Below are positions 9,381 to 27,458 of a DNA stretch of 27,458 bases, in pieces (position 1 is the stretch's first letter; each line of letters starts with the position of its first letter). Made by a program: the position numbers and the translations under genes. The notes below the pieces were generated by a model. The model was given only the letters and a program-made list of their open reading frames with translations. It did not search any database and was not told the DNA's origin. Source of the DNA: a virus (lineage: Duplodnaviria > Heunggongvirae > Uroviricota > Caudoviricetes); the IMG/VR virus record IMGVR_UViG_2703718852_000003, positions 1 to 27,458 of that record; one strand, written 5' to 3'.

Positions 9381-9710
9381 ATGAGTCTTTTGAATGAAGT
9401 TCAGAAATTCATTGAAGCCCATCCGGGCTGTACTTCCGGAGACATTGCGGATGCTTTTGCAGGTTACTCACGGCAGCGCGTTCTGCAGTCAGCAAGCAAG
9501 TTACGTCAGAGTGGGCGTGTGGCTCACCGTTGTGAAGGGGATACACGCAGACATTTCCCGCGCCTGACTGAGAGAGCGCAGGAGCCGGAACCACAACCAG
9601 TTCGTGAAACCAGACCTGTGCGCAATTTCTATGTCGGCACTAACGATTCCCGGGTGATTTTGTGCCTGACTCGCCAGGCGGAAAAACTGGTCAGGGAGAT
9701 GGCGGCATGA
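9381..9710 (+). CDS. Hypothetical protein
   Basis: ATG with GGGGG ribosome-binding site, overlapping the stop of the initiator gene; stop overlaps the next start (ATGA). Confidence 0.5.
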   Translation: MSLLNEVQKFIEAHPGCTSGDIADAFAGYSRQRVLQSASKLRQSGRVAHRCEGDTRRHFPRLTERAQEPEPQPVRETRPVRNFYVGTNDSRVILCLTRQAEKLVREMAA

Positions 9711-10419: not shown

Positions 10420-10438
10420 TTAAGAGGAGAAACGAAGT

Positions 10439-11248: not shown

Positions 11249-11249
11249 G

Positions 11250-12245
11250 GTGACCGTGAGAGCACTACTGACCCCTGAAATTGCCCCGCGTATGGGGATC
11301 GTATTGTTCAGGCCCGGTTCAGAGCTGATGCCCCTGTTTATGCAGGGGCGTGTCCTGCTGGAGCCTGAGCCGGAGCATTATTCATCTTTCGCCAGTGGTG
11401 CCGTTCCCGCGGCGTCACAACCGCTGGCGGATGATCCTGCCGTTTGGGCCGTGTTCCGCAATGAGGCAGTGATCCGTCGTGCTGGTGGCGTGGAATGTCT
11501 TGAAAGCTGGTTACTTCGTGAAAAAGGCTGCCAGTGGCCTCATTCCGACTGGCACAGCGAGAACATGACCACAATGCGACACGCTCCGGGTGCAATCCGT
11601 CTGTGCTGGCACTGCGATAACCAGCTGCGCGATCAGTTCACGGAACGGCTGGAATCAATGGCAACGGATAACTGTGCCCGCTGGGTGTTGTCTGTTGTGC
11701 GTCGGGATCTCGGTTTTGATGACAGTCACGTTGTGACAATGCCGGAACTGTGCTGGTGGCTGATTCGTAATGACCTGGCGGATGCCTTACCGGAAAGTGC
11801 AGCCCGTAAGGCACTGAGATTACCGAAGCCTGTTGTGCCGTCTGTCACCCGGGAAAGTGACCTTGTGCCTTCGGTTCCTGCTACCAGCATCATCCAGGAT
11901 AAGGCGAAAAAGGTGCTGGCGCTGAAAGTGGATCCGGAGTCGCCGGAGTCTTTTATGTTACGCCCAAAACGTCGCCGCTGGGTTAATGAAAAGTACACGC
12001 GCTGGGTTAAGACACAGCCGTGTGCATGTTGTGGAAAGCCTGCTGATGATCCCCACCACCTGATAGGTCACGGTCAGGGTGGAATGGGTACAAAAGCGCA
12101 TGACCTCTTTGTGTTGCCTTTGTGCAGAAAGCATCACGACGAGCTGCATGCAGATACCGTGGCATTTGAAGAGATGTATGGCTCCCAGCTGGAGCTGATA
12201 TTTCGTTTTATCGATCGTGCGCTGGCAATTGGCGTGCTGGCCTGA
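11250..12245 (+). CDS. DUF968-like protein with C-terminal Cys/His (HNH-like) motif
   Basis: C-terminal PCACCGKPADDPHHLIGHGQGGMGTKAHDLFVLPLCRKHHDELH; exact start uncertain (GTG at 11250 or 11256). Confidence 0.55.
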   Translation: MTVRALLTPEIAPRMGIVLFRPGSELMPLFMQGRVLLEPEPEHYSSFASGAVPAASQPLADDPAVWAVFRNEAVIRRAGGVECLESWLLREKGCQWPHSDWHSENMTTMRHAPGAIRLCWHCDNQLRDQFTERLESMATDNCARWVLSVVRRDLGFDDSHVVTMPELCWWLIRNDLADALPESAARKALRLPKPVVPSVTRESDLVPSVPATSIIQDKAKKVLALKVDPESPESFMLRPKRRRWVNEKYTRWVKTQPCACCGKPADDPHHLIGHGQGGMGTKAHDLFVLPLCRKHHDELHADTVAFEEMYGSQLELIFRFIDRALAIGVLA

Positions 12246-12262
12246 TTTTGTGGAGAAAGTTG

Positions 12263-12616
12263 ATGCGTGATATGTATGAAGTTTTGGACCGCTGGGGGGC
12301 ATGGGCTGCTGCAGAAAACAGTGGTGTGGACTGGCAACCGGTAGCTGCTGGCTTCAAGCGGCTTTTACCTCATGGCAGAAAGTCCCGGATTCAGTGCGAT
12401 GATGATGAGGGCATCATAATAGACGGTTGTGTCGCTAGGTTGCGTAAATACAAGCCGGCAGAGTATGAGCTGATAATTGCTCACTTTGTTGTTGGCATTT
12501 CGCTCCGTACAATTGCAAAGAAGCGGAAATGTTCAGACGGAACAGTTCGAAAAGATATGCAAACAGCTATGGGGTTTATTGATGGATGCTTGTCATTTTT
12601 TTATTTAATACAATGA
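12263..12616 (+). CDS. Q: Late antiterminator Q (phage 21/82-type)
   Basis: MRDMYEVLDRWGAWAAAENSGVDWQPVAAGFKRLLP ... matches the remembered Q-type N-terminus; start at the ATG with GGAG ribosome-binding site; lies upstream of the lysis cassette. Confidence 0.75.
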   Translation: MRDMYEVLDRWGAWAAAENSGVDWQPVAAGFKRLLPHGRKSRIQCDDDEGIIIDGCVARLRKYKPAEYELIIAHFVVGISLRTIAKKRKCSDGTVRKDMQTAMGFIDGCLSFFYLIQ

Positions 12617-12639
12617 GTTAAGTGCTATGTAAAATCATT

Positions 12640-12670
12640 CTACTTTCCCAACTTTTATGTGTATATAATA
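12640..12670 (+). promoter_or_regulatory. Promoter-like element (TATAAT at 12664-12669) just downstream of Q; candidate late promoter PR'
   Basis: Good -10 hexamer, weak -35; position equivalent to PR' in lambdoid phages. Weak evidence. Confidence 0.25.
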
Positions 12671-12695
12671 CCAGGGTAAAGTAACGGAGAATCTT

Positions 12696-13736
12696 GTGAA
12701 CATTCAAGCAGTAGACATTTTTTGTGGCGCAGGGGGCTTAACTTTTGGGCTAAAAAAAGCCGGGATTGAAGTTTCTCATGGCATTGATATTGATGAGTCC
12801 TGCCGTTTCGCTATTGAGAGCAATAATCCCTTAACGAAGTTCATTAACCAGTCAGTTACTGAACTGCAATCCAGCGATGTGTCTGCTATGTTCAAGGAAG
12901 GAAATATTAGATTACTTGCAGGCTGTGCCCCTTGCCAACCGTTTTCCAAGTATCGTAATCCAAATAGCAGAAAAGATGATACAAAGTGGCGTCTTTTATC
13001 TGAGTTTCAGAGGATTGTAAGTGATGTCATGCCAGAGCTTGTGACTATGGAAAATGTTCCTCAACTTAGAAATCATAAGGTTTTTGAAGAGTTTGTTAGT
13101 GTATTAAAGACTCTTGGGTATCATCTGTGGTACGACGTTGTAAAATGTTCCGAGTATGGCTTGCCTCAAAATAGACGTAGATTAATTCTAATTGGGTCCA
13201 TATTGGGGCCAATCAGCCTTGATCAAAAAAAAGTAAGCCGTAAAGTTACAGTAAAGGATGCTATTGGTCAGTTGCCAAAAATAGGTGCAGGGGAGAAACT
13301 CGAAAGTGATCCATTGCATCGTTCGCCTAAATTAAGGGATATTAACCTTAAACGAATCTTGCACTCTTTACCAGGTGGTACGTGGGATGATTGGCCTGAA
13401 GAAATTAGAGCGGATTGCCATAAAAAGCATTCAGGTGCTACCTATAAAAGTGTTTATGGACGGATGGTTTGGGACGATACTAGTCCTACAATAACTACCC
13501 AATGTTATGGATATGGTAATGGGCGATTCGGACATCCTGAGCAAAATAGAGCAATAACTTTGCGTGAAGCTGCTATTTTACAATCTTTTCCTATGGATTA
13601 TAAATTTATTGGAAAAAATACGCCTTTTTCATTCCAAAAGTTAGGAACGATGATTGGTAATGCTGTTCCCCCTATAATTGGCCAAGTAATAGGGAGAACG
13701 TTTGTTAGGCATGTTGAGGGGATAAATATCCGTTAG
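12696..13736 (+). CDS. DNA (cytosine-5)-methyltransferase
   Basis: Motif I FCGAGG, motif IV catalytic PCQPFS, motif VI ENV, motif VIII QNRRR; GTG start with GGAGA ribosome-binding site; AT-rich. Confidence 0.9.
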   Translation: MNIQAVDIFCGAGGLTFGLKKAGIEVSHGIDIDESCRFAIESNNPLTKFINQSVTELQSSDVSAMFKEGNIRLLAGCAPCQPFSKYRNPNSRKDDTKWRLLSEFQRIVSDVMPELVTMENVPQLRNHKVFEEFVSVLKTLGYHLWYDVVKCSEYGLPQNRRRLILIGSILGPISLDQKKVSRKVTVKDAIGQLPKIGAGEKLESDPLHRSPKLRDINLKRILHSLPGGTWDDWPEEIRADCHKKHSGATYKSVYGRMVWDDTSPTITTQCYGYGNGRFGHPEQNRAITLREAAILQSFPMDYKFIGKNTPFSFQKLGTMIGNAVPPIIGQVIGRTFVRHVEGINIR

Positions 13737-14394
13737 AGATAATATAATCTTCAGTTGAGTTTATTAATAAACGAAGATATAGATCAACTCTCTCTGCTCT
13801 AGACTTAACTTCTTCTAAGGGGTCAATTTGCCCCTTTTTAGAGAAGCTAGTACTTCCATGCGCGAGTTCGTTTCTGATATCCTTAAGCAAGTCTAAGTCA
13901 ATACCATTTCTACATTCAGGTGAGTTTGCGATAGTTATTCCGTAAGCCTGCGTTATTTTGTGTAATACAGGCTTGCAAACATTACCATTGAATTCTTTAC
14001 GAATATTCAATGAGGCTGAAATTATTCTTTTGGAAATGTCAGTGCCTATCTTTTTATAAAGGGATTGCCCTGTTTCATTATCTGAAACAATTCTATGTAA
14101 TATATTTACTTGAAGCTTCTCCCTGAGTGATGCGTAATTCACCTCATTATCTTGTAAATGATCATAAATTGACTCGATGCAACCTCTGGCAGTATTTTCA
14201 ACTTGATTATATAGCATCATATGAACGGATGATTTTAAAATATTTACCCTTAGGATATTAGATTCTATTTCATCTTGATGCGCTTGCGGATCTAACTGCT
14301 GAGTATGAATCTCTATAGATGATGCAAGAGAAAGCAGTTCCATAATGTCTCTTGCTCTTTCTTCATATTCATCTCGTAAATCAATTAGACTCAT
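13705..14394 (-). CDS. HEPN-like protein (R-x4-HG motif), second gene of the DUF262 operon
   Basis: C-terminal IRNELAHG fits the HEPN R-x4-6-H motif; start 3 nt after the DUF262 stop; 3' end overlaps the convergent methyltransferase by 32 bp. Family assignment by eye only. Confidence 0.5.
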   Translation of the reverse strand: MSLIDLRDEYEERARDIMELLSLASSIEIHTQQLDPQAHQDEIESNILRVNILKSSVHMMLYNQVENTARGCIESIYDHLQDNEVNYASLREKLQVNILHRIVSDNETGQSLYKKIGTDISKRIISASLNIRKEFNGNVCKPVLHKITQAYGITIANSPECRNGIDLDLLKDIRNELAHGSTSFSKKGQIDPLEEVKSRAERVDLYLRLLINSTEDYIISNGYLSPQHA

Positions 14395-14396
14395 TT

Positions 14397-15557
14397 TTAA
14401 ATCCCTAACAACTTATTTTTAACGTAAAAGATTCTGTTTTTTAGCTGGCTGGTATTGTTTGCACTATCAGCAGTAACAAGTGTTTCAAATTCCTCTTCAA
14501 ATAGCCATTCACCTACAGGTACGGCTGGACTCTGGAGTTGTGGGTTAGTTTTTAATGCAAGTGCAGTTCCCACGGCAATGGCTTCGTATCTGGCTCGTGG
14601 GGTGGTTTTACTTGTTGCGGTCTTTTTAAAGCCAATAGGGAAATGGGTAGCAACAAAAGCAAGCATCATTTCAAAATCATGTTTAAAATTATCAACATCT
14701 TGTTGAGTAGTCACAGCTGCTGCTTGTTCATTTAAATAATTATCAATAAAGGGACGGACAAATCCCTTATAGTTTTCTAAATCATTTAAATATGCAAAAA
14801 ATCTCAAAACTAACTCACGATGATCGCCATTCGACCGTTTCCGGTCTGATAATGGAGCTAGTTGGGAAAAAAGTGAGTTTGTTGAGCATGGGGTCACAAC
14901 ATCTTTATAGAACATTGAGGTAGCAGCATCTGAGCCATGCCTCACTTCCATCGCTTCTAATCTTTTAACACCTGAGTTGATCCTTTCAAATAAATCTCTT
15001 CTATGTTGTTCCTCAACATCACCTTTCAACTCAATAAATCTTAGTGAAGCTCTTAAAAATCTTCTTTGGCGGCTAGCTAAAAGATCTGAAAATTTGAAAC
15101 CTTCTAAACTTTTAAGCTCTTTCAAATCCTTTAACTCAAATTGATCGTTCCAAAAATAATAAATAGAGCGTATCCGTTGTGAACCATCAATGATTTCTAC
15201 CCTACCATCTAATTCAGGGTCTTCATTAAATACATCAGCAATGTAAAGGTAAGGTATTGGAAAGTCTAATAGAATACTTTCTATAAAGCGAGAGGCTGTT
15301 TTTGTATCCCACTTGTAATCACGTTGATAATCTGGAATAAAAAGCTCGTTTTTGTCATTTTCAATATTATCACCATACTTTTGAATAATGACTTCAACGG
15401 TCCACTCACGTACATTGTATCCAATGTTTCTCTGAGCGAGTCTGATTTCATTGTCAGCGGAAGCGGTTAAAGCTGCAATTTCAGCCTTTTTTCTGTTCTT
15501 AGCGTGTTCATCTTGTATCTGAGCAAGCTCTTCTTTGAGTTCTTTGAGTGTAGTCAT
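14397..15557 (-). CDS. DUF262 (GmrS / ParB-like NTPase) domain protein
   Basis: Hallmark motifs FIPDYQRDYKWD and EIIDGSQR (DGQQR box); AAGGAA ribosome-binding site; AT-rich. Confidence 0.8.
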   Translation of the reverse strand: MTTLKELKEELAQIQDEHAKNRKKAEIAALTASADNEIRLAQRNIGYNVREWTVEVIIQKYGDNIENDKNELFIPDYQRDYKWDTKTASRFIESILLDFPIPYLYIADVFNEDPELDGRVEIIDGSQRIRSIYYFWNDQFELKDLKELKSLEGFKFSDLLASRQRRFLRASLRFIELKGDVEEQHRRDLFERINSGVKRLEAMEVRHGSDAATSMFYKDVVTPCSTNSLFSQLAPLSDRKRSNGDHRELVLRFFAYLNDLENYKGFVRPFIDNYLNEQAAAVTTQQDVDNFKHDFEMMLAFVATHFPIGFKKTATSKTTPRARYEAIAVGTALALKTNPQLQSPAVPVGEWLFEEEFETLVTADSANNTSQLKNRIFYVKNKLLGI

Positions 15558-15657
15558 GTTTTCGTTCCTTTAATTGAAAGTTGATTGTAAGAAAACTATA
15601 ACGCGTACGCAAAAAGTATTGTATTGTGTTAAGAGTGGTTACTTCGCCACACAACTT

Positions 15658-15682
15658 AAACCCGCCGTCGAGCGGGTTTTTT
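15658..15682 (+). terminator. Rho-independent terminator-like hairpin
   Basis: AAACCCGC-CGTCGA-GCGGGTTT followed by TTTTTTG on the plus strand. Confidence 0.5.
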
Positions 15683-15804
15683 GTACCTGTAAACCTGGTG
15701 CAGTACGGTAAACACGCTGGTGGTCGTGAATACTGACTTTTTATCTTGCTGGCTTTTTAGACAAGAGTTATTGGTATGTCATGTTAACCAGAAGGAAAAA
15801 AGAC

Positions 15805-15999
15805 ATGCTAAAACAGCAAGATATGACAGAAACGGCGAAAGTTGTTTTTAATGAATTAAGCATCGAACCGGCAACAGTCGGGGAGATTGCACAAAACACA
15901 TATCTTTCACGCGAACGCTGTCAGTTAATACTGACCCAGTTGGTTATGGCGGGGCTGGCAGATTACCAGTTCGGCTGTTACAGACGCCTTCAGCAATGA
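15805..15999 (+). CDS. Small hypothetical protein, possible winged-helix regulator
   Basis: ATG with GAAGGA ribosome-binding site; helix-turn-helix-like segment ATVGEIAQNTYLSRERCQLILTQL; divergent from the DUF262 operon. Confidence 0.4.
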   Translation: MLKQQDMTETAKVVFNELSIEPATVGEIAQNTYLSRERCQLILTQLVMAGLADYQFGCYRRLQQ

Positions 16000-16148
16000 A
16001 GGACTTTTAATTTGTGAAAATGGGCGGCTGGTGGGTGTTGGTAGCACCTGCCAGCCATTCGCTCATGCTTACTGGTCACAAGCGAACCACGGCCCACTGC
16101 TTTAGCGCAAAAGCAGAGTGAGCCTACCAGAGTTACGCTTACTGATCC

Positions 16149-17201
16149 ATGAAAAATACTGTAAAAATAAACAGTGTTGATTTAATCAACGCTGATTGCC
16201 TGCATTTTATTCAGTCCCTGCCTGATGATTCCATTGACCTGATTGTTACCGATCCGCCTTACTTCAAGGTGAAACCCAACGGTTGGGACAATCAGTGGAA
16301 AGGGGACGAAGATTACCTTAAGTGGCTGGACCACTGTCTGGCCCAGTTCTGGCGGGTGTTGAAACCTGCCGGAAGCCTTTACCTGTTCTGTGGGCATCGC
16401 CTGGCATCTGATATTGAGATCATGATGCGTGAACGTTTCAACGTGCTTAACCATATCATCTGGGCGAAGCCGTCCGGACGTTGGAATGGGTGTAATAAAG
16501 AAAGTCTGCGCGCATATTTTCCTGCCACAGAGCGCGTTCTGTTTGCTGAACATTACCAGGGGCCATATCGCGGCAAAAGTGACGGCTATGCGGCAAAAGA
16601 AAGGGAACTCAAACAGCACATAATGGCACCGCTGATATCGTATTTCAGGGATGCTCGTGCCGAACTGGGTATAACGGCAAAACAAATTGCCGAAGCCACA
16701 GGTAAGAAAAATATGGTTTCCCACTGGTTTGGTGCCAGTCAGTGGCAGTTGCCGAATGAGGCTGACTATCGGAAGTTACAGGCACTGTTTTCCCGTATAG
16801 CGGCAGAGAAGTTTCAGGAACAACAACTGGAACAACCACACCACCAGCTGGTGGCATCTTATGATTCACTGAATCGCAAATATTCTGAATTGCTGGATGA
16901 GTTTAAATCTCTCCGGCGCTATTTCTCCGTATCAGTCTCCGTGCCTTATACCGATGTCTGGATGCATAAACCCGTTCAGTTCTACCCGGGTAAACATCCG
17001 TGTGAGAAACCGGCGGATATGCTCAGGCAAATAATCAATGCCAGTAGTCGACCTGGTGATCTGGTTGCTGATTTTTTTATGGGATCCGGTTCCACAATAA
17101 AAGCAGCAATGGCGCTGGGGCGTCGGGCCTTAGGTGTTGAGCTTGAGTCAGAGCGGTTTAACCAGACAGTGAAAGAGATAAACGAGCTGGTGGGGAAATA
17201 A
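16149..17201 (+). CDS. DNA amino-methyltransferase (N6-adenine or N4-cytosine, beta class)
   Basis: Motif IV DPPY near the N-terminus and motif I FFMGSGST near the C-terminus. Confidence 0.8.
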
Positions 17202-17268
17202 TCTGGTGGCCACGTCAGGTGGCCTTTTTATTTCCATTACACAGCACCCGCATCTGCGAGGTGGGGTT

Positions 17269-17484
17269 ATGAAATCCATGGATAAGTTAACAACGGGTGT
17301 CGCCTATGGCACCTCAGCAGGTAGTGCCGGGTACTGGTTTTTACAGTTGCTCGATAAAGTCACGCCCTCACAGTGGGCGGCAATAGGTGTGCTGGGTAGT
17401 CTGGTATTTGGCCTGCTGACGTACCTGACAAACCTTTATTTCAAGATTAAAGAAGATAAGCGCAAGGCTGCGAGAGGTGAATAA
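17269..17484 (+). CDS. S: Pinholin, phage 21 S21-type, with dual-start motif
   Basis: [26 protein letters not shown] ... two transmembrane segments, charged C-terminus; matches the remembered S21 sequence; the ORF-track start at 17206 is an unsupported extension. Confidence 0.85.
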
Positions 17485-17981
17485 TGCCTCCATCATTACG
17501 AAAAGCAGTTGCTGCTGCTATTGGTGGCGGAGCAATTGCTATAGCATCAGTGTTAATCACTGGCCCAAGTGGTGACGATGGCCTGGAAGGTGTCAGCTAC
17601 ATACCATACAAAGATATCGTTGGCGTATGGACTGTATGTCACGGACACACCGGAAAAGACATCATGCTCGGTAAAACGTATACCGAAGCAGAATGCAAAG
17701 CCCTCCTGAATAAAGACCTTGCCACGGTTGCCAGACAAATTAACCCGTACATCAAAGTCGATATACCGGAAACAACGCGCGGCGCTCTGTACTCGTTCGT
17801 CTACAACGTGGGTGCTGGCAATTTCAGAACATCGACGCTTCTTCGCAAAATAAACCAGGGCGATATCAAAGGCGCATGTGACCAGCTACGTCGCTGGATA
17901 TACGCTGGCGGTAAGCAATGGAAAGGCCTGATGACTCGTCGTGAGATTGAGCGTGAAGTCTGTTTGTGGGGGCAACAATGA
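17484..17981 (+). CDS. R: SAR endolysin (signal-anchor-release lysozyme, R21-type)
   Basis: N-terminal Gly/Ala-rich SAR domain [20 protein letters not shown] followed by lysozyme catalytic region; start overlaps the holin stop. Confidence 0.9.
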
Positions 17982-18445
17982 GCAGAGTAACCGCGATTAT
18001 CTCCGCTCTGGTTATCTGCATCATCGTCTGCCTGTCGTGGGCGGTCAATCATTACCGTGATAACGCCATCGCCTACAAAGAACAGCGAGATAAAAAAGTC
18101 AGAGAGCTGAAGCAGGCGACCGCCACCATTACTGACATGCAGCAGCGCCAGCGTTCTGCTGATGCACTCGATGCTAAATACACGAAGGAGTTAGCTGATG
18201 CGAAAGCTGAAAATGATGCTCTTCGGCGCAAGCTTGATAATGGTGGTCGGGTGTTCGTCAAAGGAAAATGCCCTGTGCCATCCTCAGCCGAAACCTCCAG
18301 CGCCTCCGGCATGGGCAATGATGCCACCGTCGAACTCTCTCCAGTTGCTGGACGAAACGTTCTCGGTATCCGGGACGGAATTATCCGCGACCAAACAGCA
18401 CTGAGAACGCTTCAGGAATACATCAGGACGCAATGCCTTCGATGA
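17978..18445 (+). CDS. Rz: Rz i-spanin
   Basis: N-terminal transmembrane segment, coiled-coil-rich periplasmic domain; start overlaps the endolysin stop (ATGA). Confidence 0.75.
18198..18404 (+). CDS. Rz1: Rz1 o-spanin (lipoprotein embedded in the +1 frame of Rz)
   Basis: Signal peptide with lipobox (LIMVVGC), Pro-rich mature region, GAAGGAG ribosome-binding site; entirely within Rz. Confidence 0.7.
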
Positions 18446-18715
18446 TAGCGATAATTTTACTCATCATCCTTCACATCTGGCTCTGTAGACAGGATGGTGA
18501 TCACTTCTGGAGTGAATCCAGATTAAACATCTCATTGCTGATGCTTGAGGTTAAACATCTGGCGCGCGGTAAGGGGCTGCGTTGAGATAAGAGCCAGTTC
18601 ATTACAAAGCCTATCTACGGATGGGCTTGATAATGGTTTGTTAACCTCGCTTATCACGAACGGCATTACCGCAGGCATTCACTGAGTGCCTGCGATAATA
18701 CTTTTGATAGTCAGA

Positions 18716-18907
18716 TTACAGGATAAAAATTAGATCGAAGTAATAACCTCCTTCCATTGTGATTTTTCCTTCACGGTATAACTCGCAAAGAGAATCGAAA
18801 GTTTCTTCATGATTATCGTTCTCAGGGAACCATGCTGGCTGGAAAGCAACTTTTCCTTTTTCATTCATTACTTTTAACATATAAGGGATAATATCTTGTT
18901 TTTTCAT
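18716..18907 (-). CDS. Small hypothetical protein (AT-rich, opposite strand, in the position of lambda bor)
   Basis: 63 aa ORF with AAGAGG ribosome-binding site; no family recognised. Confidence 0.4.
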   Translation of the reverse strand: MKKQDIIPYMLKVMNEKGKVAFQPAWFPENDNHEETFDSLCELYREGKITMEGGYYFDLIFIL

Positions 18908-19104
18908 AAAAAAACCTCTTATTTTGATTGAAAAGTTTTACGCGGCATTTAGAGTACTTGAAGTCACTTCTCATCTTTAACGTCCTCCGCAAATACATCG
19001 AAAATAATATTCACTTTGTGATTTGTAGTTACCTTGGAAAGGTACATAACTAACGAGAATTACTCTCATCATTGACGGGTCCTCCCGGTGGGGTGGCCTG
19101 CCAC

Positions 19105-19187
19105 GGGGCGGGAGCGTCGCGGAAAAAGGCTAGTTTTTGAAATTTTATTCGTCATCACCACCACTGTAATTGATTGATATTACAGTG
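19105..19187. promoter_or_regulatory. Putative cos region: GGGGCGGGAGCGTCGCGG resembling lambda cosN, then AT-rich segment and a 9-bp perfect inverted repeat CACTGTAAT-N8-ATTACAGTG
   Basis: Resemblance to remembered lambda cos (GGGCGGCGACCTCGCGGGTTTT...) and location between the lysis genes and the small terminase gene. Confidence 0.3.
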
Positions 19188-19291
19188 ATTTTATTTTTAT
19201 GGTGTCGATTCTGATTGTTTTTTGTTCATCACTAACACCGTTTGCCTAAAGTTGTTCGCAAGATGCATGTTTAAAACATTCTGGAGCGGGT

Positions 19292-19621
19292 ATGGATCGA
19301 GAGTTAAAAAATCTGACGCTGAATATCAGTCAACTGGCGGCATTGTCAGGTGTACATCGCCAGACTGCTGCGGCAAGGCTGCAAAATCTACCCGTTGCAG
19401 GGGGGCATGAAAGCAACCTCAAGCTTTATCGGGTGGTTGATATTGTGTCGGCATTTCTGGCATTACCACCGCCGGTTGCAGAAGGCGAAATGGACGCGCA
19501 TGAGCGCAAAGCCTGGTATCAGTCTGAACGTGAGCGTCTTAAGTTTGAACAGGAAACGGCACAACTCATTCCGGCCAGTGATGTCAGACGGGAGTTTGCC
19601 ATCTGGGCAAAATCCGGATGA
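19292..19621 (+). pseudogene. Terminase small subunit (Nu1-like), truncated or frame-disrupted
   Basis: N-terminal helix-turn-helix (LNISQLAALSGVHRQTAAARLQNL); ORF stops at 109 aa; a charged tail continues in another frame to 19769; no large terminase or portal gene follows. Confidence 0.55.
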
Positions 19622-19782
19622 TGTCAAACGTCGGCGCAAGGCCGAAATTGATGAAAACCGCAAGCTGGATCTGGTATTTGATACCGATCCGGCCAGTGAT
19701 AAAGGAGGCAGCAGTGCCGCAACGAAACGACAGGAGCCGCAGCACACCGACGACCAGTCCGAAGAATAATTCCTGGTTCAGG

Positions 19783-21945
19783 ATGCAGGCTGGTCACCAG
19801 AGTGACGCGGATATTTATATTTATGACGAGATTGGTTTCTGGGGTGTTACAGCGAAGCAGTTTATCAGTGATCTGAATGCACTGGGCGATATCACCCACA
19901 TTAATCTCCATATTAATTCACCGGGTGGCGATGTCTTTGAAGGCATCGCCATTTTTAATGCGCTGAAAACACATGGTGCGTCCATTACCGTTTATGTCGA
20001 CGGTGTGGCGGCGTCAATGGCGTCGGTCATTGCGATGGTGGGAAACCCGGTCATTATGCCGGAAAACACCTTCATGATGATTCATAAACCATTTGGCTTT
20101 ACGGGCGGTGATGCGGAGGACATGCGCACCTATGCCGACCTGCTCGATAAAGTTGAGGCGGTTCTGTTACCCGCTTATGCACAGAAAACCGGGAAAACCA
20201 CCGATGAAATTGCTGCCATGCTGGCGGATGAGACCTGGATGTCCGGTGCCGAATGTCTGGCACATGGATTTGCTGATCAGGTAACGCCAGCCGTTAAGGC
20301 AATGGCATGTATTCAGTCAAAACGTACAGAGGAATTTAAAAAGATGCCGGAATCCATTCGAAACATGATTACTCCGCCACGCAACAGTGCTCCACGCGTA
20401 CAGGATAATGAACCTGAAGCCTCCCGGACGCCAGTGCAGGCAGCAGCACCCGTGGTGGATGAAAACAGCATCCGTGCGCAGGTACTGGCAGAGCAAAAAG
20501 CGCGTGTAAACGGTATTAATGATCTGTTTGCCATGTTTGGCGGGCGTTATCAGACGCTGCAGGCTCAGTGTCTTGCCGATCCTGAATGTTCGCTGGAGCA
20601 GGCCCGCGAAAAGCTGTTGAACGAGATGGGGCGCGAGTCCACGCCATCCAATAAAAATACCCCGGCTCATATTTATGCCGGTAACGGTAATTTTGTGGGG
20701 GACGGGATCCGCCAGGCGCTGATGGCGCGTGCCGGATTTGAAAAAACCGAACGTGATAATGTCTACAACGGGATGACCCTGCGTGAATATGCCCGTATGT
20801 CACTGACTGAACGGGGTATTGGGGTTTCCAGTTATAACCCGATGCAGATGGTCGGTGCGGCGTTCACACACAGTACGTCTGACTTCGGTAATATTCTGCT
20901 GGATGTTGCGAACAAAGCCATTCTGCAGGGCTGGGAAGATGCCCCTGAAACCTATGAACAGTGGACGCGGAAAGGTCAGTTGTCTGATTTTAAAATTGCC
21001 CATCGTGTGGGTATGGGGGGCTTCAGTGCTCTGCGTCAGGTGCGTGAAGGGGCGGAATATAAATACGTCACCACCGGAGATAAACAGGCCACTATTGCAC
21101 TGGCGACCTATGGCGAGCTGTTCAGTATCACCCGTCAGGCCATTATCAATGATGATCTGAATATGCTGACCGATGTCCCGATGAAACTGGGCCGTGCGGC
21201 GAAATCCACTATTGCCGATCTGGTTTATGCCATTCTGACGTCTAACCCGAAAATCTCCACAGATAATGTAAGTCTGTTCGATAAAGCGAAACATGCAAAC
21301 GTACTGGAGAGCGCTGCAATGGACGTGGCACCGGGCATGGCACGCATCTGCCTTTACGGGGATTTACAACGATTTGGCCGCCGCATCGACCTTCGAGTGA
21401 AAACGGGGTCCGAAGCCATCCGGGCGCTGGCCATGCAGAACCCGGCGTTTCGTCAGAAACTGAGTGACGGCTGGTACCAGGTACGCATTGCCGGGCGTGA
21501 TGCAGGTGAAACCGAATTGTCTGCCCGTCTTAATGAGCCGCTGGCAAATGGTGCCGTGATCCACATCGTGCCGCGTCTGGCGGGAGCTAAAAGTGGAGGT
21601 GTGTTTCAGGTGGTGCTGGGGGCGGCGCTGATTGCGGTGGCATGGTGGAACCCTGTGGGCTGGCTGGGTGCCGCGGCTGTATCGGGCATGTATGCGGCAG
21701 GGGCCAGTATGATCCTGGGCGGAGTGGCGCAGATGCTGGCACCGAAAGCCAGGACGCCCACGGCAGCAAGTACAGATAACGGCAAACAGAACACCTATTT
21801 CTCCTCACTGGATAACATGGTTGCCCAGGGCAATGTTCTGCCGGTTCTGTACGGTGAAATGCGCGTGGGGTCTCGCGTGGTTTCTCAGGAGATCAGCACG
21901 GCAGACGAAGGGGACGGTGGTCAGGTTGTGGTGATTGGTCGCTGA
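19783..21945 (+). CDS. Chimeric ORF: ClpP-like prohead protease plus HK97-type major capsid protein (C-terminally truncated) fused in frame to a lambda gpI-like tail assembly protein
   Basis: Protease core HINSPGGDVFEGIAIFNALK ... ASMASVIAMVG; capsid-like middle; from about 21336 MARICLYGDLQRFGRRIDL ... NTYFSSLDNMVAQGNVLPVLYGEMRVGSRVVSQEISTADEGDGGQVVVIGR matches remembered lambda gpI. Confidence 0.65.
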   Translation: MQAGHQSDADIYIYDEIGFWGVTAKQFISDLNALGDITHINLHINSPGGDVFEGIAIFNALKTHGASITVYVDGVAASMASVIAMVGNPVIMPENTFMMIHKPFGFTGGDAEDMRTYADLLDKVEAVLLPAYAQKTGKTTDEIAAMLADETWMSGAECLAHGFADQVTPAVKAMACIQSKRTEEFKKMPESIRNMITPPRNSAPRVQDNEPEASRTPVQAAAPVVDENSIRAQVLAEQKARVNGINDLFAMFGGRYQTLQAQCLADPECSLEQAREKLLNEMGRESTPSNKNTPAHIYAGNGNFVGDGIRQALMARAGFEKTERDNVYNGMTLREYARMSLTERGIGVSSYNPMQMVGAAFTHSTSDFGNILLDVANKAILQGWEDAPETYEQWTRKGQLSDFKIAHRVGMGGFSALRQVREGAEYKYVTTGDKQATIALATYGELFSITRQAIINDDLNMLTDVPMKLGRAAKSTIADLVYAILTSNPKISTDNVSLFDKAKHANVLESAAMDVAPGMARICLYGDLQRFGRRIDLRVKTGSEAIRALAMQNPAFRQKLSDGWYQVRIAGRDAGETELSARLNEPLANGAVIHIVPRLAGAKSGGVFQVVLGAALIAVAWWNPVGWLGAAAVSGMYAAGASMILGGVAQMLAPKARTPTAASTDNGKQNTYFSSLDNMVAQGNVLPVLYGEMRVGSRVVSQEISTADEGDGGQVVVIGR

Positions 21946-21963
21946 TGCAAAATGTTTTATGTG

Positions 21964-21990
21964 AAACCGCCTGCGGGCGGTTTTGTCATT
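21964..21990 (+). terminator. Terminator-like hairpin between the gpI-like region and J
   Basis: AACCGCC-TGCG-GGCGGTT stem-loop followed by a T-rich run. Confidence 0.35.
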
Positions 21991-22005
21991 TATGGAGCGT
22001 GAGGA

Positions 22006-23877
22006 ATGGGTAAAGGCAGCAGTAAGGGGCATACCCCGCGCGAAGCGAAGGACAACCTGAAGTCCACGCAGCTGCTGAGTGTGATCGATGCCATCAGCGA
22101 AGGGCCGGTTGAAGGTCCGGTGGATGGATTAAAAAGCGTGCTGCTGAACAGTACGCCGGTGCTGGACAGTGATGGGAATACCAACATCGCCGGTGTCACG
22201 GTGGTGTTCCGGGCCGGTGAGCAGGAGCAGACTCCGCCGGAGGGATTTGAATCCTCCGGCTCCGAGACGGTGTTGGGTACGGAAGTGAAATACGACACGC
22301 CGATCACCCGGACCATCACGTCGGCAAACATTGACCGTCTGCGTTTTACTTTCGGCGTGCAGGCACTGGTGGAAACCACCTCAAAGGGGGACAGGAATCC
22401 ATCGGAAGTCCGCCTGCTGGTTCAGATACAACGTAACGGTGGCTGGGTGACGGAAAAAGACATCACCATTAAGGGTAAAACCACTTCACAGTATCTGGCC
22501 TCGGTGGTGGTGGATAACCTGCCGCCGCGCCCGTTTAATATCCGGATGCGCAGGATGACGCCGGACAGCACCACAGACCAGCTGCAGAACAAAACGCTCT
22601 GGTCGTCATACACCGAAATTATCGATGTGAAACAGTGCTACCCGAACACGGCACTGGTCGGCGTGCAGGTGGACTCGGAGCAGTTCGGCAGCCAGCAGGT
22701 GAGCCGTAATTATCATCTGCGCGGGCGTATTCTGCAGGTGCCGTCGAATTATAACCCGCAGACGCGGCAATACAGCGGTATCTGGGACGGAACGTTTAAA
22801 CCGGCATACAGCAACAACCCGGCCTGGTGTCTGTGGGATATGCTGACCCATCCGCGCTACGGCATGGGGAAACGTCTTGGTGCGGTGGATGTGGATAAAT
22901 GGGCGCTGTATCTTATCGGCCAGTACTGCGACCAGTCAGTGCCGGACGGCTTTGGCGGCACGGAGCCGCGCATCACCTGTAATGCCTGGCTGACCACACA
23001 GCGTAAGGCGTGGGATGTGCTCAGCGATTTCTGCTCGGCGATGCGCTGTATGCCGGTATGGAACGGGCAGACGCTGACGTTCGTGCAGGACCGACCGTCG
23101 GATAAGGTGTGGACCTATAACCGCAGTAATGTGGTGATGCCGGATGATGGCGCGCCGTTCCGCTACAGTTTCAGCGCCCTGAAAGACCGCCATAATGCCG
23201 TTGAGGTGAACTGGATTGACCCGGATAACGGCTGGGAGACGGCGACAGAGCTTGTGGAGGACACGCAGGCCATTCTCCGTTACGGTCGTAACGTCACGAA
23301 GATGGATGCCTTTGGCTGTACCAGCCGGGGGCAGGCACACCGCGCCGGGCTGTGGCTGATTAAAACGGAGCTGCTGGAGACGCAGACCGTGGACTTCAGC
23401 GTGGGTGCCGAAGGGCTTCGCCATGTACCGGGCGATGTCATTGAAATCTGCGATGATGACTATGCCGGTATCAGCACCGGCGGGCGCGTGCTGGCGGTGA
23501 ACAGCCAGACCCGGACGCTGACGCTCGACCGTGAAATCACGCTGCCATCTTCCGGTACCACGCTGATAAGCCTGGTTGACGGGCAGGGGAGTCCGGTCAG
23601 CGTGGAGGTCCAGTCCGTCACCGACGGCGTGAAGGTGAAAGTGAGCCGTGTTCCTGACGGCGTTGCCGGATACAGCGTATGGGGGCTGAAGCTGCCGACG
23701 CTGCGCCAGCGCCTGTTCCGCTGCGTGAGTATCCGTGAGAACGATGACGGCACGTATGCCATCACCGCCGTGCAGCATGTAACTACGGCTCCCCTTACGG
23801 AAACATTGACTTTATCGAGATCTCGGCGCGCGGTCTGCCTTCTTTGCTTAGTGCGGATAATGTTTCTCGTCATCTGA
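22006..23877 (+). pseudogene. J: Tail tip host-specificity protein J, N-terminal roughly 590 aa only
   Basis: Near-identity to remembered lambda J from MGKGSSKGHTPREAKDNLKSTQLL through ITAVQHV, then unrelated sequence and a stop after about 30 codons; full J is about 1130 aa. Confidence 0.8.
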
Positions 23878-26408
23878 GTATACGCCGCTTAGGGTCAACC
23901 GGGCTGACCGATAACAACCAGATGCGTTACGGCCTGGTTAAAGGTGATGGCTTTATTGAGGTTTGGGCCTTCCAGTGCGCATTTATCAACGGCGCAAAGG
24001 TTGCGGTACTGGCGCAGACGGCACGCACGGAATTATACATTCCAGACGGATTTGTTAAGCAAACCGCCGCGCCTTCTGGATATATTGAAGGCAACGTTGT
24101 AAGGATTTACGACCAGGTAAACAAGCCGACTAAAGCAGATTTGGGTCTTTCTAATGCTATGCTTACAGGCGCTTTCGGTCTTGGCGGTAGCGGGATATCA
24201 ACAAACGGCAAGATGAGCGATGTAGAGATCTTAAAAGCTCTGCGTGACAAAGGTGGTCATTTCTGGCGCGGTGATAAGCCGACCGGAAGCACGGCGACCA
24301 TTTATAGCCACGGTTCTGGTATATTCTCGCGGTGCGGCGATACGTGGTCAGCGATCAATATCGACTACTCAACCGCGAAGATTAAGATCTATGCCGGCAA
24401 CGATGCCCGGCTTAACAACGGGACTTTTAGCGTCAATGAGCTATACGGCTCGGCAAACAAGCCGTCGAAATCGGATGTTGGACTTGGCAACGTAACGAAC
24501 GATGCGCAGGTAAAAAAAACCGGCGATACAATGACCGGTGACTTGACAATCAAAAAAGGTACACCGTCAGTCTTCCTGCGGGCAGACAGTGGAGTCACCG
24601 CTTTGCGGTTTTATACTGGCGATAACACAGAGCGCGGCATAATCTATGCTGGTCCTAACACTGATTCGCTTGGCGAAGTTCGCATCAGGGCAAAGACAGC
24701 AGGGGGGACATCAGGAGGGGATCTTGTTGTTCGTCACGACGGGAGGGTTGAAGTCCGTGATCTCACAGTAGCGTATAAAATTAAAAGCAGAACGATTGAG
24801 ATTGCAAATACCGACACTGACTCATCGGCAACTACGCTCAGCATCTATGGAGTACAGCACACGCCGTTGGTTTTAACGCGTTCTGGTTCTTCTGAAAATG
24901 TGTCCATTGGGTTTAAGTTAGACAACATGAACCCAAAGTATCTTGGAATTGATACTAATGGGGATCTGGCTTTTGGTGAGAGTCCTGATCAGAAACAAAA
25001 CAGCAAATTGATCACGCAAGCGAAACTCGACAAGGGATTAACGATTGGTGGTCAACTGGCTTTCAAAGGTACGACAGCGTTTTCAGCCGTTGCTACGTTC
25101 AGTGCCGGGATAGCAGGAGCCATCGAGCCGGAAAACATTGACGGCCAGACGGTTAATCTTAACAACCTGACCATCATCAAGTCAGATGCCGGGGCAGTTA
25201 AATACTATATTTGTCCATCCTCTGCAGGTGGTGCAAATATCACCAACAAGCCTGACGGCGTAACAGGTAACTTTTTGCTCCGTGTTGAATCGACTCGTAA
25301 GGTTAGGGATTCAGATTATGCGAACATGCAAACGCTGATTAACAGCGACACAAAACGTATATACGTTCGCTTTGTTGTTAATGGAAACTGGACAGCGTGG
25401 AGTCAGGTTGTTGTTTCCGGATGGAATCAGGATGTAACCGTCAGGTCGTTAACCTCGACGACTCCATCAAAATTAGGTGGCGGGCGGATTGATGTGCTTG
25501 GAAGTACGTCAGATTATGGCAGCATGAATTGTACCGTTCGTGGTGTTGATAGCACTGGAACCAATTCGGCGTGGTCGGTAGGCACATCAGAAAGCACAGG
25601 CAAAAAGTTGTTCCTGAAAAACCACAGAAGCAGCGCTCAAGTGCTGTTAAATGGCGATGATGGAGCGGTTCAACTACTAAGTGGCACTGTTAACGGTGCT
25701 ACAGCGCAGGCGCTAACCATCAACAAAGATGAGGTTAACTCAACTGCCGATTTAGTAATTAGAAAACAAACAGGGACTGGCAATCGTTTTGCTTTACTTA
25801 ATTCAGGTAATTCAGAACTGCCAGTTAGCATCGCGGTCTGGGGGTCAAGTGATCGACAAAACGTTTTTGAGGTTGCAACGTCTGCTGCGTATCTGTTTTA
25901 TGCGCAAAGAACACCAGCAGGCCAGTTGTTTGATGTAAATGGCGCTATTAATTGCACAACGCTGAATCAGTCATCAGACCGCGACCTTAAAGACGATATT
26001 CGCGTTATCAGCGACGCGACGAAAGCAATCCGCAAAATGAACGGTTACACCTACACGCTCAAGGAAAACGGCCTGCCTTATGCTGGCGTTATTGCACAGG
26101 AAGTAATGGAGGCGATACCAGAAGCTGTGGGATCGTTTACTCATTATGGTGAAGAGTTGCAAGGTCCGACCGTTGACGGCAACAAGCTACGCGAAGAAAC
26201 GCGCTATCTTAATGTTGACTACGCCGCCGTGACGGGTTTACTTGTTCAGGTCGCCCGTGAAACAGATGATCGCGTTACCGCGCTGGAAGAGGAAAACACA
26301 ACGCTACGTCAAAATCTGGCAACAGCAGGCACCCGGATCAGCACTCTGGAAAATCAGGTAAGCGAACTGGTTGCACTTGTCCGGCAGTTAACAGGAAGCG
26401 AACATTGA
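23844..26408 (+). CDS. Side tail fibre protein with C-terminal intramolecular chaperone (peptidase S74-like) domain
   Basis: Fibre repeats (NKPSKSDVGLGNVTNDAQVKKTGDTMTGDLTI); C-terminal SDRDLKDDI ... coiled-coil segment typical of the auto-cleaving chaperone; true N-terminus uncertain because the frame is open upstream. Confidence 0.7.
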   Translation: MLSADNVSRHLSIRRLGSTGLTDNNQMRYGLVKGDGFIEVWAFQCAFINGAKVAVLAQTARTELYIPDGFVKQTAAPSGYIEGNVVRIYDQVNKPTKADLGLSNAMLTGAFGLGGSGISTNGKMSDVEILKALRDKGGHFWRGDKPTGSTATIYSHGSGIFSRCGDTWSAINIDYSTAKIKIYAGNDARLNNGTFSVNELYGSANKPSKSDVGLGNVTNDAQVKKTGDTMTGDLTIKKGTPSVFLRADSGVTALRFYTGDNTERGIIYAGPNTDSLGEVRIRAKTAGGTSGGDLVVRHDGRVEVRDLTVAYKIKSRTIEIANTDTDSSATTLSIYGVQHTPLVLTRSGSSENVSIGFKLDNMNPKYLGIDTNGDLAFGESPDQKQNSKLITQAKLDKGLTIGGQLAFKGTTAFSAVATFSAGIAGAIEPENIDGQTVNLNNLTIIKSDAGAVKYYICPSSAGGANITNKPDGVTGNFLLRVESTRKVRDSDYANMQTLINSDTKRIYVRFVVNGNWTAWSQVVVSGWNQDVTVRSLTSTTPSKLGGGRIDVLGSTSDYGSMNCTVRGVDSTGTNSAWSVGTSESTGKKLFLKNHRSSAQVLLNGDDGAVQLLSGTVNGATAQALTINKDEVNSTADLVIRKQTGTGNRFALLNSGNSELPVSIAVWGSSDRQNVFEVATSAAYLFYAQRTPAGQLFDVNGAINCTTLNQSSDRDLKDDIRVISDATKAIRKMNGYTYTLKENGLPYAGVIAQEVMEAIPEAVGSFTHYGEELQGPTVDGNKLREETRYLNVDYAAVTGLLVQVARETDDRVTALEEENTTLRQNLATAGTRISTLENQVSELVALVRQLTGSEH

Positions 26409-26591
26409 TATCCTTCAAGCTCTGAAGGAGGCTGTTCCCGGTACGTTCAGACTGTTGTTGAGCTGGAAATCGCAACGGAGGAAGAAACCTTGTTGCTGGA
26501 AGCCTGGAAAAAGTATCGGGTGTTGCTGAACCGTGTTGATACATCAACTGCACCTGATATTGAGTGGCCTACAGTACCTGTTATGGAATAA
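26409..26591 (+). pseudogene. Tail fibre assembly protein (Tfa) C-terminal remnant, no start codon
   Basis: In-frame after the fibre stop; encodes ...[30 protein letters not shown], the conserved Tfa C-terminus. Confidence 0.6.
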
Positions 26592-26648
26592 TCGTTACTG
26601 CTGTAGCCATAATAACGTCATATACAAGAGCTTGCTGGATTACGAAGT

Positions 26649-26850
26649 ATGCGCGCTGATTTTGAAGATAAAATCAGTGGTACAAAGTCCGAAAGGCCTG
26701 GGCTGAAAAAACTACTCAGAATATTATCGGCAGGTGACACACTGATTGTCTGAAAGCTGGACTGACTGGGGGCGTTTTTTCTTCCATGTTATGGGGCTCA
26801 GGCCGAAATGGAACGTGAACTGACTGTTAAGAGAACAATAGTCGGGTTTT
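26649..26850 (+). pseudogene. Serine DNA invertase (Pin/Hin/Gin family) remnant with N-terminal loss, internal deletion and two in-frame stops
   Basis: Translation MRADFEDKISGTKSERPGLKKLLRILSAGDTLIV*KLD*LGAFFLPCYGAQAEMERELTVKRTIVGF matches Pin segments FEDKLSGTRTDRPGLK ... DTLVVWKLDRLG and RFFFHVMGALAEMERELIIERT; catalytic Ser region missing. Confidence 0.6.
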
Positions 26851-27035
26851 GAGGCTGCGAGATTACATAGAGTTAATTGGTTGATTAATAGGGTATAGAG
26901 GTTATCCAACTATTCGTTACGACATATATTGTTGTTACCTACAAGTTATGAAAAATATATTATTTTATTGATTTTTTGTATGTACAGATTAATACTTAAT
27001 ACGCATCAATCTGCACATTTGCTTTTGTGAGAGAA

Positions 27036-27458
27036 TTATCGTTGTAAGAGTGATTTAATATTGTTGGCGACTACTTCAGGATTATTATCATAGACCATAT
27101 AATACTTATCACTAAGTAAAGGTAATGATAGGTTTACGACCTCCTCGTCTTCTTTTTTTAATAAGGTCAAAAGTTTTACGTCGCCACTCGATATTTCGCT
27201 GGCTAAAACTGCCCTTAATTCTTTTTGAGGCCATTCCTTATTGACTGAATTAGCAGATAAAATAGCGATGACATATTTTGATTTAACTAGTGCTGCATTT
27301 ATTTTCTCAATTAAGGAGTCGCCCCATTTTATCTCAACATGATCTATGAAGGCTGAAATTTTAAGTTTAGTTAACTCGTCATATATTGGAATTGCAATGC
27401 CTTTTTTGTCTTCGCTTGCATGGCATATAAAAACATCAAAGTTTTCTGTTTCTTTCAT
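27036..27458 (-). CDS. TIR-domain protein (standalone, about 140 aa)
   Basis: N-terminal FDVFICHASEDK and conserved SANSVNKEWPQKEL block (S-x-x-S-x-W-x-x-E-L with putative catalytic Glu); AT-rich; start codon at the window edge, so upstream context is not visible. Confidence 0.75.
   Translation of the reverse strand: MKETENFDVFICHASEDKKGIAIPIYDELTKLKISAFIDHVEIKWGDSLIEKINAALVKSKYVIAILSANSVNKEWPQKELRAVLASEISSGDVKLLTLLKKEDEEVVNLSLPLLSDKYYMVYDNNPEVVANNIKSLLQR

Follow-up and report, generated by a model that had tools for sequence, protein, structure and literature searches.

The late region of the window, by which we mean the whole 27,458-nucleotide stretch of viral DNA analysed here, is very probably the late operon of a lambdoid prophage with an mEp460/cdtI-type head and a lambda-type tail that has been eroded by three internal deletions. 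Compared with the intact prophage L003 of Escherichia coli P21_SE1_04.20 (NZ_CP085074.1), it lacks exactly three segments of 3,836, 8,361 and 3,606 bp, each removed seamlessly. The missing DNA totals 15.8 kb of the morphogenesis operon, which is present both in that prophage and in phage mEp460 (NC_019716.1). The initial annotation had proposed at least three deletions producing chimeric ORFs; there are three, each placed to the nucleotide by comparison with an intact prophage that occupies the same site. The element is an ordinary lambda-like E. coli prophage and a textbook defective one, of a known kind and with nothing new about it, and the finding matters little beyond annotation.

A defective lambdoid prophage at prfC

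The window was found by blastn to be collinear with L003, which occupies the identical chromosomal site, the 5' end of prfC adjoining yjjG. It starts with the duplicated prfC 5' end, which has a 14-bp repeat in common with the prfC-proximal right end. Because it has an integrase gene and its attachment region is duplicated where it sits in the chromosome, the element is an integrated phage genome, that is, a prophage, and the nucleotide synteny of its late operon places it among lambdoid phages with mEp460/cdtI-type head and lambda-type tail modules. L003, which is assumed to be functional on the basis of gene content alone, has the same order of early, lysis and late genes and is 100% identical in the retained structural blocks, whereas the tail-fibre end of the window is only 94.9% identical to it. 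Over positions 6289-19612, the sole difference between the two is one intergenic 1-bp indel. A pseudogene call at about 9375-9689 is common to the window and L003. The viable phage mEp460, whose gene order is that of the intact prophage from the early through the lysis to the late genes, is 96-99% identical across all retained blocks, which are alike in order and orientation. The mEp460 and cdtI records begin at or near terS by convention and contain no annotated cos site.

The integrase, immunity, Q and lysis genes are unaltered in the window; the lysis cassette, identical to that of L003, lies directly upstream of the eroded region in a shared late operon. The morphogenesis set (terS, terL, portal, protease/major capsid protein, head-tail joining, tail tube, tape measure, M, L, K, I and J) is incomplete, and what is left of it is a truncated terS, the tail of the portal gene, residues 1-539 of the capsid protein, I, and residues 1-592 of J. 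Absent are terL, the portal, a complete capsid protein, the head-tail joining proteins, tail tube, tape measure, M, L and K, together with the receptor-binding half of J and the fibre attachment domain. Structural genes elsewhere in the element, which the initial annotation had allowed for, were found neither in the left part, compared with the annotation of the AF44 prophage, nor in the right flank up to DinI and prfC in the sequence L006. Virion-essential genes are thus gone relative to intact relatives, as in defective prophages, and the element measures about 29 kb, or about 65% of the intact length of about 45 kb. A phage satellite (PICI or cf-PICI) was considered and rejected, since satellites are expected to be compact at about 10-20 kb, to bring a replication module and helper-exploiting genes of their own, and not to arise from a full phage by simple deletion, whereas this is a full 45-kb prophage minus three deletions that still has Q and the lysis cassette. 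Established lambda biology implies that morphogenesis requires the lost genes, and the element would therefore be unable to build virions alone. Because none of the integrase, immunity, Q and lysis genes has changed, induction should lead to excision, replication and lysis, and this lysis would probably proceed without released particles.

Three junctions and the reading frames that they created

The late region aligns with L003 as four collinear blocks, with overlaps of 2, 2 and 3 bp at the junctions and no inserted bases (Table 1); the endpoints were located by blastn against L003, in keeping with the proposal that complete relatives be aligned. Between the junctions, the window matches L003 at 100% identity in blocks of 1,720 and 2,453 bp, so this is not a chance pattern. 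In the annotation of L003, the deleted intervals correspond to terL, the portal gene, the capsid 3' end, tail genes, the 3' half of J, lom and the 5' part of the side tail fibre gene stf.

Table 1 Features of the window and the junctions left by the three deletions
Feature	Position in the window	Strand	Remarks
Integrase	386-1609		
Intact lysis cassette: holin, lysozyme, Rz-like spanin	17206..18445	+	Phage_holin_2_1, Phage_lysozyme and Phage_lysis matches
Truncated small terminase gene (DUF1441 type)	19292..19621	+	109 aa; aligned to L003 terS 23223-23717
Junction 1	19611..19612	.	AA microhomology; L003 23543 joined to 27378
Portal gene 3' remnant ('charged tail')	19611..19769	+	Last 52 codons and stop, without start codon
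ORF	19618-21945	+	775 aa, open from ATG 19618
Chimeric 743-aa ORF: ClpP-like prohead protease/major capsid and gpI	19714..21945	+	Start called in public annotations
Junction 2	21329..21330	.	CA microhomology; L003 29097 joined to 37457
gpI (tail assembly protein I) coding part	21337..21945	+	Lambda_tail_I, residues 574-657 of the 775-aa ORF
Truncated tail tip protein J	22006..23877	+	623 aa: 592 of 1165 native codons, then 31 out-of-frame residues
Junction 3	23779..23781	.	GTA microhomology; L003 39909 to 43513; AF44 25304 to 28908
Side tail fibre gene 3' two-thirds (S74 intramolecular-chaperone type)	23779..26408	+	Residues ~383-1258; Peptidase_S74

The 3,836-bp deletion at Junction 1 removed the 3' end of terS, terL, a gpW-like gene and the first ~450 portal codons, joining terS codon 107 to the final 159 nt of the portal gene. 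The small terminase does end at 109 aa and is directly followed by the protease ORF, with no terL or portal, as had been noted: it consists of 107 of 164 native codons and a Ser-Gly-stop supplied by the junction, and covers positions 1-103 of 147 of the DUF1441 small terminase profile (Pfam, PHROG and NCBIfam searches). The charged out-of-frame stretch ending at 19769 had been ascribed either to a deleted portal or to a frameshifted terS C-terminus. It matches positions 181-231 of 233, about the last 50, of the portal family phrog_537 and corresponds to L003 27378-27536, the end of the portal CDS (26028-27536), which bears out the former origin and rules against the latter.

Removal of the rest of the head and the tail shaft genes, as previously proposed, is accounted for by the 8,361-bp deletion at Junction 2, which took the capsid C-terminus and the head decoration and head-tail joining genes on the head side, and the tail terminator, tail tube, G/T, tape measure, M, L and most of K on the tail side. 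The protease-capsid ORF had been seen to run in frame into gpI near 21300-21340, and the junction lies within that interval; residues 1-539 of the 675-residue protease-capsid protein are joined in frame to residues 12-215 of gpI in the 743-aa chimera, and the 775-aa ORF contains CLP_protease, Phage_capsid_4 and Lambda_tail_I within one reading frame in the same family searches. Both internal ATGs used as I starts in other annotations, at 21337 (202 aa) and 21397 (182 aa), are kept; annotated I homologues are of these two lengths, and I of mEp460 lies at 14335-14883. The exact chimera is present in NCBI as HAM4140217.1 and others under the label 'Clp protease ClpP'. This 743-aa protein and the 623-aa J fragment are deletion artefacts and ought to be flagged as pseudogene products.

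The 3,606-bp deletion at Junction 3 removed the C-terminal half of J, lom and approximately the first 382 codons of stf. J codon 592 now runs on, out of frame, into stf at about codon 383, so the earlier estimate that J retains roughly 590 residues was accurate. Against the lambda TipJ model NF049904 the truncated J scores 1345.6 bits, below the cut-off of 1950, over positions 1-593 of 1163, whereas J of L003 scores 2329 bits over 1-1163. The stf remnant has lost its own start, and its frame differs from that of J. The suggestion that stf is itself a pseudogene in the 'intact' relatives was rejected, as its translation is a single uninterrupted ORF of 1257/1258 codons and the split is an annotation choice. 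A promoter and terminator scan gave fewer matches than in shuffled sequences, and antisense ORFs in the remnants had no Pfam or other family matches.

Origin, age and meaning of the deletions

Seamless deletions with 2-3 bp of microhomology bear the signature of illegitimate, RecA-independent recombination; either replication slippage or template switching, or else microhomology-mediated end joining, may have produced them. The truncated terS, the portal tail, the protease-capsid::gpI fusion, the truncated J and the promoterless, startless 3' part of stf would then be passive consequences of breakpoint position. Between the two breakpoint regions of deletion 2, local alignment revealed no homology longer than about 10 nt. 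A CCGG motif lies within 0-3 nt of one breakpoint at all three junctions of the window; it was rejected as a post-hoc observation, given a background of one CCGG per 114 bp here and a loss of association after correction over all 4-mers with random breakpoints (P = 0.98 for the three junctions of the window and 0.69 for nine junctions).

Identity of 100% between the retained fragments and the intact relative marks the deletions as very recent, and they do not extend beyond a small clone. Neither the remnants nor any part of the early region has a substitution relative to L003. Identical copies of the chimeric proteins are encoded on 11-19 contigs in NCBI, ENA and Logan, one of them 4.89 Mb long, always with the same neighbours; the counts of 11 and of 16-19 probably differ because annotators, for example in L009, skip the J fragment. 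Across 5,426 complete RefSeq genomes, not one of the three junctions occurs, and intermediates with only one or two junctions were found neither there nor by exact-protein look-ups. Decay has gone further in siblings. In an assembly otherwise 100% identical to positions 12006-27458 of the window, the gene for the retron-type RT-TIR protein is frameshifted, and sibling L010 has an extra 4.8-kb deletion from 7522 to 12355 that removes the replication genes and most of Q and ends just short of the methylase/defence island.

We weighed this origin by recent deletion against readings in which the junctions, or the proteins that they encode, are something else. Mis-joins in one assembly would agree with the absence of the junctions from all complete RefSeq genomes, and nothing else specifically favours them; the exact junction-spanning proteins are found on independent contigs from varied submitters and pipelines with identical DNA, and repeat collapse cannot explain the junctions, whose overlaps of 2-3 bp are much shorter than the k-mer of any assembler. 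We consider such an artefact extremely improbable. No more credible is the reading of the long ORFs as natural full-length fusions of an unusual functional phage module. The protease-capsid fusion by itself is a natural family, NF045540, of which the intact 675-aa protein of L003 covers positions 2-651 of 652, and it is the only part of the ORF for which the possibility of a natural fusion, raised in the initial annotation, holds. The chimera, however, exceeds the NF045540 cut-off (765.7 against 475 bits) with coverage of only 2-515 of 652, after which gpI follows; the capsid gene and I are separate, 8.4 kb apart, in all intact relatives and in mEp460, and J is only half covered by its own model. 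The capsid-I join is not a natural protein, its being in frame is a one-in-three accident, and the alignments already refute the natural-fusion reading.

Prophage domestication, reportedly a subject of Bobay et al. in PNAS in 2014, would make the deletions real and the remainder an object of selection, as cargo, as decoys or as a helper-dependent mobilisable unit; in the decoy form, truncated capsid, J or I products would be dominant-negative against related superinfecting phages. The defence-type cargo (two methyltransferases, the RT-TIR protein, and a DUF262 protein that matches NsnA and PD-T4-2_A and is paired with a HEPN partner), the sparing of the methylase/defence island by the L010 deletion, and the observation that interactions with other prophages still allow defective lambdoid prophages of O157 to be induced, packaged and transferred (PMC2669165) all speak for it. 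The initial annotation had likewise suggested retention for the cargo; with zero divergence from the intact relative, however, selection has had no time to act and can have left no signal, so that cargo retention is unsupported. The frameshift in the RT-TIR gene and the loss of replication genes and most of Q in L010 also tell against it, and the structural module is still whole in about 15 of the 16 complete genomes that carry this prophage. Lambda-like cos packaging usually has a minimum above about 65% of genome length, and by lambda analogy the element falls under it. Its chimeric ORFs, moreover, lie in the late operon, and their expression would have to await activation by Q. We regard domestication as improbable. 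Less probable still is that the remnant is not inert and that the deletions made a defence or satellite-like element in one step. In that case the Q protein of a related superinfecting phage would trans-activate the late operon, expressing the lysis cassette, the capsid::gpI chimera and the half J, and the latter two would poison the invading phage's assembly; in another version, the element might be mobilised by an mEp460-type helper phage resident in the same cell.

Comparison with related and classical defective prophages

The closest genome to the window is the prophage of AF44 (NZ_OZ547155.1), with 0 substitutions over about 25 kb shared, and it is likewise defective. It carries one other deletion, which joins window position 19345 (terS codon ~18) to 21821 (mid-I), so that the head remnants are gone, and it retains the full J, lom and stf, unlike the window; neither element is derivable from the other. 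Together with a Logan contig bearing a fourth deletion, the window clone and AF44 make three near-identical prophage copies with differing microhomology deletions, a clean, datable snapshot of the speed of prophage decay within a clone, before point mutations. Independent multi-deletion scars in the mEp460-type module, including capsid-to-K/I and J-to-stf joins, are found in E. coli EC21Z-078 and 035152, in contrast to the window at other breakpoints and in other prophage lineages (95-99% identity). Some of these breakpoints lie 6-53 bp from those of the window, a proximity that may partly reflect hit ranking.

The cryptic prophages DLP12, Rac and Qin of K-12, which we take to be lambdoid elements with morphogenesis deletions and persisting regulatory, lysis and cargo genes, are comparable to the element described here. 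The same applies to Sp1-Sp18 of O157 Sakai (PMC2669165), lambdoid prophages that internal deletions in the morphogenesis genes have inactivated but that still have their regulatory, lysis and cargo genes. The O157 Sakai and K-12 prophages are older and diverged and often carry IS elements, whereas the window shows no divergence, no IS elements and clean microhomology deletions.

Deletions in the late operon

All ORFs claimed for the late region in the initial annotation were found (table), and its overall observation was confirmed by ORF calls, family assignments and junction mapping. By megablast against phages, window 19611-21330 matched the portal 3' end and protease/capsid gene of mEp460-family phages (mEp460, cdtI, Ayreon and others) at 99-99.9% identity, and 21329-23781 matched the K 3' end, I and J 5' half of the same family at 93-97%. 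In mEp460 these two stretches are separated by 8.4 kb, with lambda-order tail genes in between. The prophage is carried at ≥80% window coverage by 16 of 5,426 complete E. coli genomes. E. coli P21_SE1_04.20 (NZ_CP085074.1, locus L003) holds it at the same site, the yjjG-prfC interval, with a complete late operon in the order terS, terL, gpW-like gene, portal, ClpP-protease/MCP fusion, decoration and joining genes, tail tube, G/T, tape measure, M, L, K, I, J, lom and stf. When aligned directly with this locus by blastn, the window fell into four collinear blocks, and the junctions were then viewed at base level. No inserted bases, IS or repeats were found at any of the three junctions in this comparison, and the three mapped deletions support the earlier proposal that the chimeric ORFs arose by deletion.

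Features of the window and deletions mapped against the intact locus L003
Feature	Window position	Strand	Match or content	L003 bases joined	Deleted	Microhomology
prfC duplication (~160 bp)	1-160		duplicated prfC 5' end
Defence/modification island	12696-17201		C5 cytosine methyltransferase; convergent HEPN_MAE_28990 nuclease with DUF262/GmrSD_N protein; 64-aa ORF; N6/N4 methyltransferase
T-run	15670-15676		in terminator-like hairpin between DUF262 gene and 64-aa ORF
63-aa ORF	18716-18907	-	between lysis genes and terS
Hairpin	19162-19187		perfect 9-bp stem, then T-rich run; ~100 bp upstream of terS
Small terminase ORF, 109 aa	19292-19621	+	DUF1441-type, profile positions 1-103/147 only; phrog_141 (terminase small subunit)
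Frame-shifted stretch	end 19769		final ~50 positions of portal family phrog_537
Protease-capsid-tail ORF, 775 aa	19618-21945	+	CLP_protease, Phage_capsid_4 and Lambda_tail_I, all in one frame
J ORF, 623 aa	22006-23877	+	lambda TipJ positions 1-593/1163; score below family cut-off
Tail fibre ORF, 854 aa	23844-26408	+	C-terminal part, S74-chaperone tail fibre
RT-TIR gene, 3' part	27036-27458	-	534-aa ORF in AF44
Deletion 1	19611/19612			23543 to 27378	3,836 bp	AA
Deletion 2	21329/21330			29097 to 37457	8,361 bp	CA
Deletion 3	23779-23781			39909 to 43513	3,606 bp	GTA

The consequences for each gene were read off the L003 annotation. In terS, 107 of 164 codons survive, followed by Ser-Gly-stop, and only the last 52 codons and the stop of the portal gene are left. 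This stop coincides exactly with the end of the charged out-of-frame tail at 19769; of the two origins suggested for that tail, the portal 3' end is the correct one, the other being a frameshifted terS C-terminus. Of the 675 codons of the protease/MCP fusion protein, 539 remain, and these continue in frame into gpI, which is entered at residue 12 and read through to the native I stop at 21945. The protease-capsid fusion itself is natural: it corresponds to NCBIfam NF045540, whose whole profile is covered by the intact 675-aa protein, and the window copy ends at profile position 515/652. Separate production of I would in principle remain feasible, because internal ATGs at 21337 and 21397, the I starts of other annotations (202-aa and 182-aa versions), are retained. 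J keeps 592 of 1165 codons, followed by 31 out-of-frame residues, and stf lost its first ~382 codons, start included; the stf and J frames differ, so no J-fibre fusion is formed. In intact relatives (L003 42366-46139; L002 27761-31537), RefSeq splits stf into an 'incomplete' N-terminal-domain pseudogene and an S74 peptidase CDS. A pseudogene in these relatives was rejected, the translation being one uninterrupted ORF of 1257/1258 codons.

The deletions are seamless, show 2-3 bp of microhomology and lie within a late operon otherwise identical to the complete one. They probably arose by illegitimate recombination, through slippage, template switching or microhomology-mediated end joining; the chimeric ORFs would be their by-products and the lone in-frame fusion a 1-in-3 outcome. 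In lambda genetics, no virions are produced once terL, the portal, a complete capsid protein, the tail tube, the tape measure and the J C-terminal half are lost, and the same would hold for this element. With its integrase, immunity, Q and lysis genes all unaltered, the element should on induction still excise and lyse the cell, without particles.

Occurrence and recency of the deletions

The exact 109-aa, 743-aa (protease/capsid-gpI chimera) and 623-aa products occur on 11, 16 and 11 contigs in public collections, respectively, and direct contig look-ups placed the 623-aa protein on 12 contigs and the 743-aa protein on 19. The contigs with chimeric proteins come from NCBI, ENA and Logan, one being 4.89 Mb long; their neighbour genes are constant, and at DNA level they match the window with 100% identity. 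Because so many contigs share products, neighbours and DNA, an artefact of a single assembly is excluded. All three junctions are absent from the 5,426 complete RefSeq genomes; an apparent junction 2 match in strain 035152 proved to be a different deletion, with 70 bp more retained. Intermediates having just one or two of these junctions turned up neither in the contig look-ups nor in the 5,426 complete genomes; the deletions may have come one after another or in a single complex repair event. The structural blocks that remain match L003 at 100% identity, and the sole difference between window 6289-19612 and that locus is one T, in the intergenic T-run at 15676. All three deletions are real, and they are both rare and recent.

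The closest genome is E. coli AF44 (NZ_OZ547155.1), with zero substitutions over ~25 kb of shared sequence; the same T-run is the only difference in 19.3 kb (T6 in the window, T7 in AF44 and P21_SE1_04.20). Unlike the window with its three deletions, AF44 has a single one, joining the window equivalents of 19345 and 21821 at a TTG microhomology, and its J, lom and stf are complete. Neither element is derivable from the other. Because AF44 is substitution-free yet differently deleted, between two and four independent deletions took place within essentially zero mutational time.

In addition, a Logan contig from the same clone as the window (L010, SRR18429049) carries the same chimeric ORFs and a further 4.8-kb microhomology deletion, at L010 643-644, joining window 7521 to 12356. 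Lost with it are the replication genes, RusA, KilA-N, DUF968 and most of Q; the deletion stops shortly upstream of the methylase/defence island.

Remainder of the element and its cargo

The left 19 kb of the window matches the AF44 annotation gene for gene: integrase, YfdP-S genes and cI-like and cro-like regulators; replication genes, RusA, KilA-N, DUF968 and Q; cytosine methylase, HEPN/DUF262 pair and N6/N4 methylase; and holin, lysozyme, spanin and a small Kazal-like gene. On the right side, the only features beyond the fibre remnant are remnants of tfa and of an invertase, a retron-type RT-TIR gene and DinI, followed by prfC. Structural genes outside the remnant region were found neither in the left 19 kb by the AF44 annotation nor in the right flank to prfC, and antisense ORFs within the remnants had no family matches. 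The 63-aa ORF is elsewhere annotated as a Kazal-type protease inhibitor family protein. No cos site was located; the hairpin upstream of terS falls in the region expected for it. The prophage inserts at the prfC start, and the gene is restored at the far end. The prfC duplication and a 14-bp repeat, ATTATTTCTCACCC, common to both element ends (recurring near prfC), mark an element of ~29.4 kb, compared with ~45 kb for the intact form.

The initial annotation had also suggested that the defective element is retained for its cargo. The cargo is present: the DUF262 protein matches PADLOC families NsnA and PD-T4-2_A and adjoins the HEPN_MAE_28990 protein, and there are two methyltransferases and an RT-TIR matching retron type XII (PADLOC RT-TIR_XII). 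GC falls to 35-38% in the island, which lies between Q and the holin gene. Selective retention, on the other hand, is unsupported, though conceivable. Zero divergence from the intact relative leaves no signal of it, the structural module is whole in most complete genomes with the prophage, and in GCA_946403035.1, which matches window 12006-27458 at 100% DNA identity, the RT-TIR gene reads T6 rather than T7, which breaks it into ORFs of 385 aa and 128 aa. The break reflects either a genuine frameshift or an error in the homopolymer; the run lies at L006 16322, about 870 bp past the window's right end.

Relation to other defective prophages

The element belongs to a known kind, the standard defective lambdoid prophage, and falls in one class with the K-12 cryptic prophages. 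Rapid deletional decay is reportedly the general picture for prophages drawn by Bobay, Touchon and Rocha in PNAS in 2014. Independent multi-deletion scars occur in the same module type in other E. coli strains. In 035152 (L005 6001-7340), an independent prophage diverged by 1-5%, the distances to the window's breakpoints are 6 bp at the portal 3' end, 53 bp for the capsid and 17 bp at the K/I overlap, a closeness that could reflect a deletion hotspot or an effect of match ranking, since this strain is the best-ranked of thousands of matches and the ranking favours similar deletions. CCGG adjoins several breakpoints, a pattern not significant after multiple-motif correction. The O157 Sakai Sp prophages belong to the same class as well, and multiple defects together with residual mobility have been documented for them (PMC2669165).
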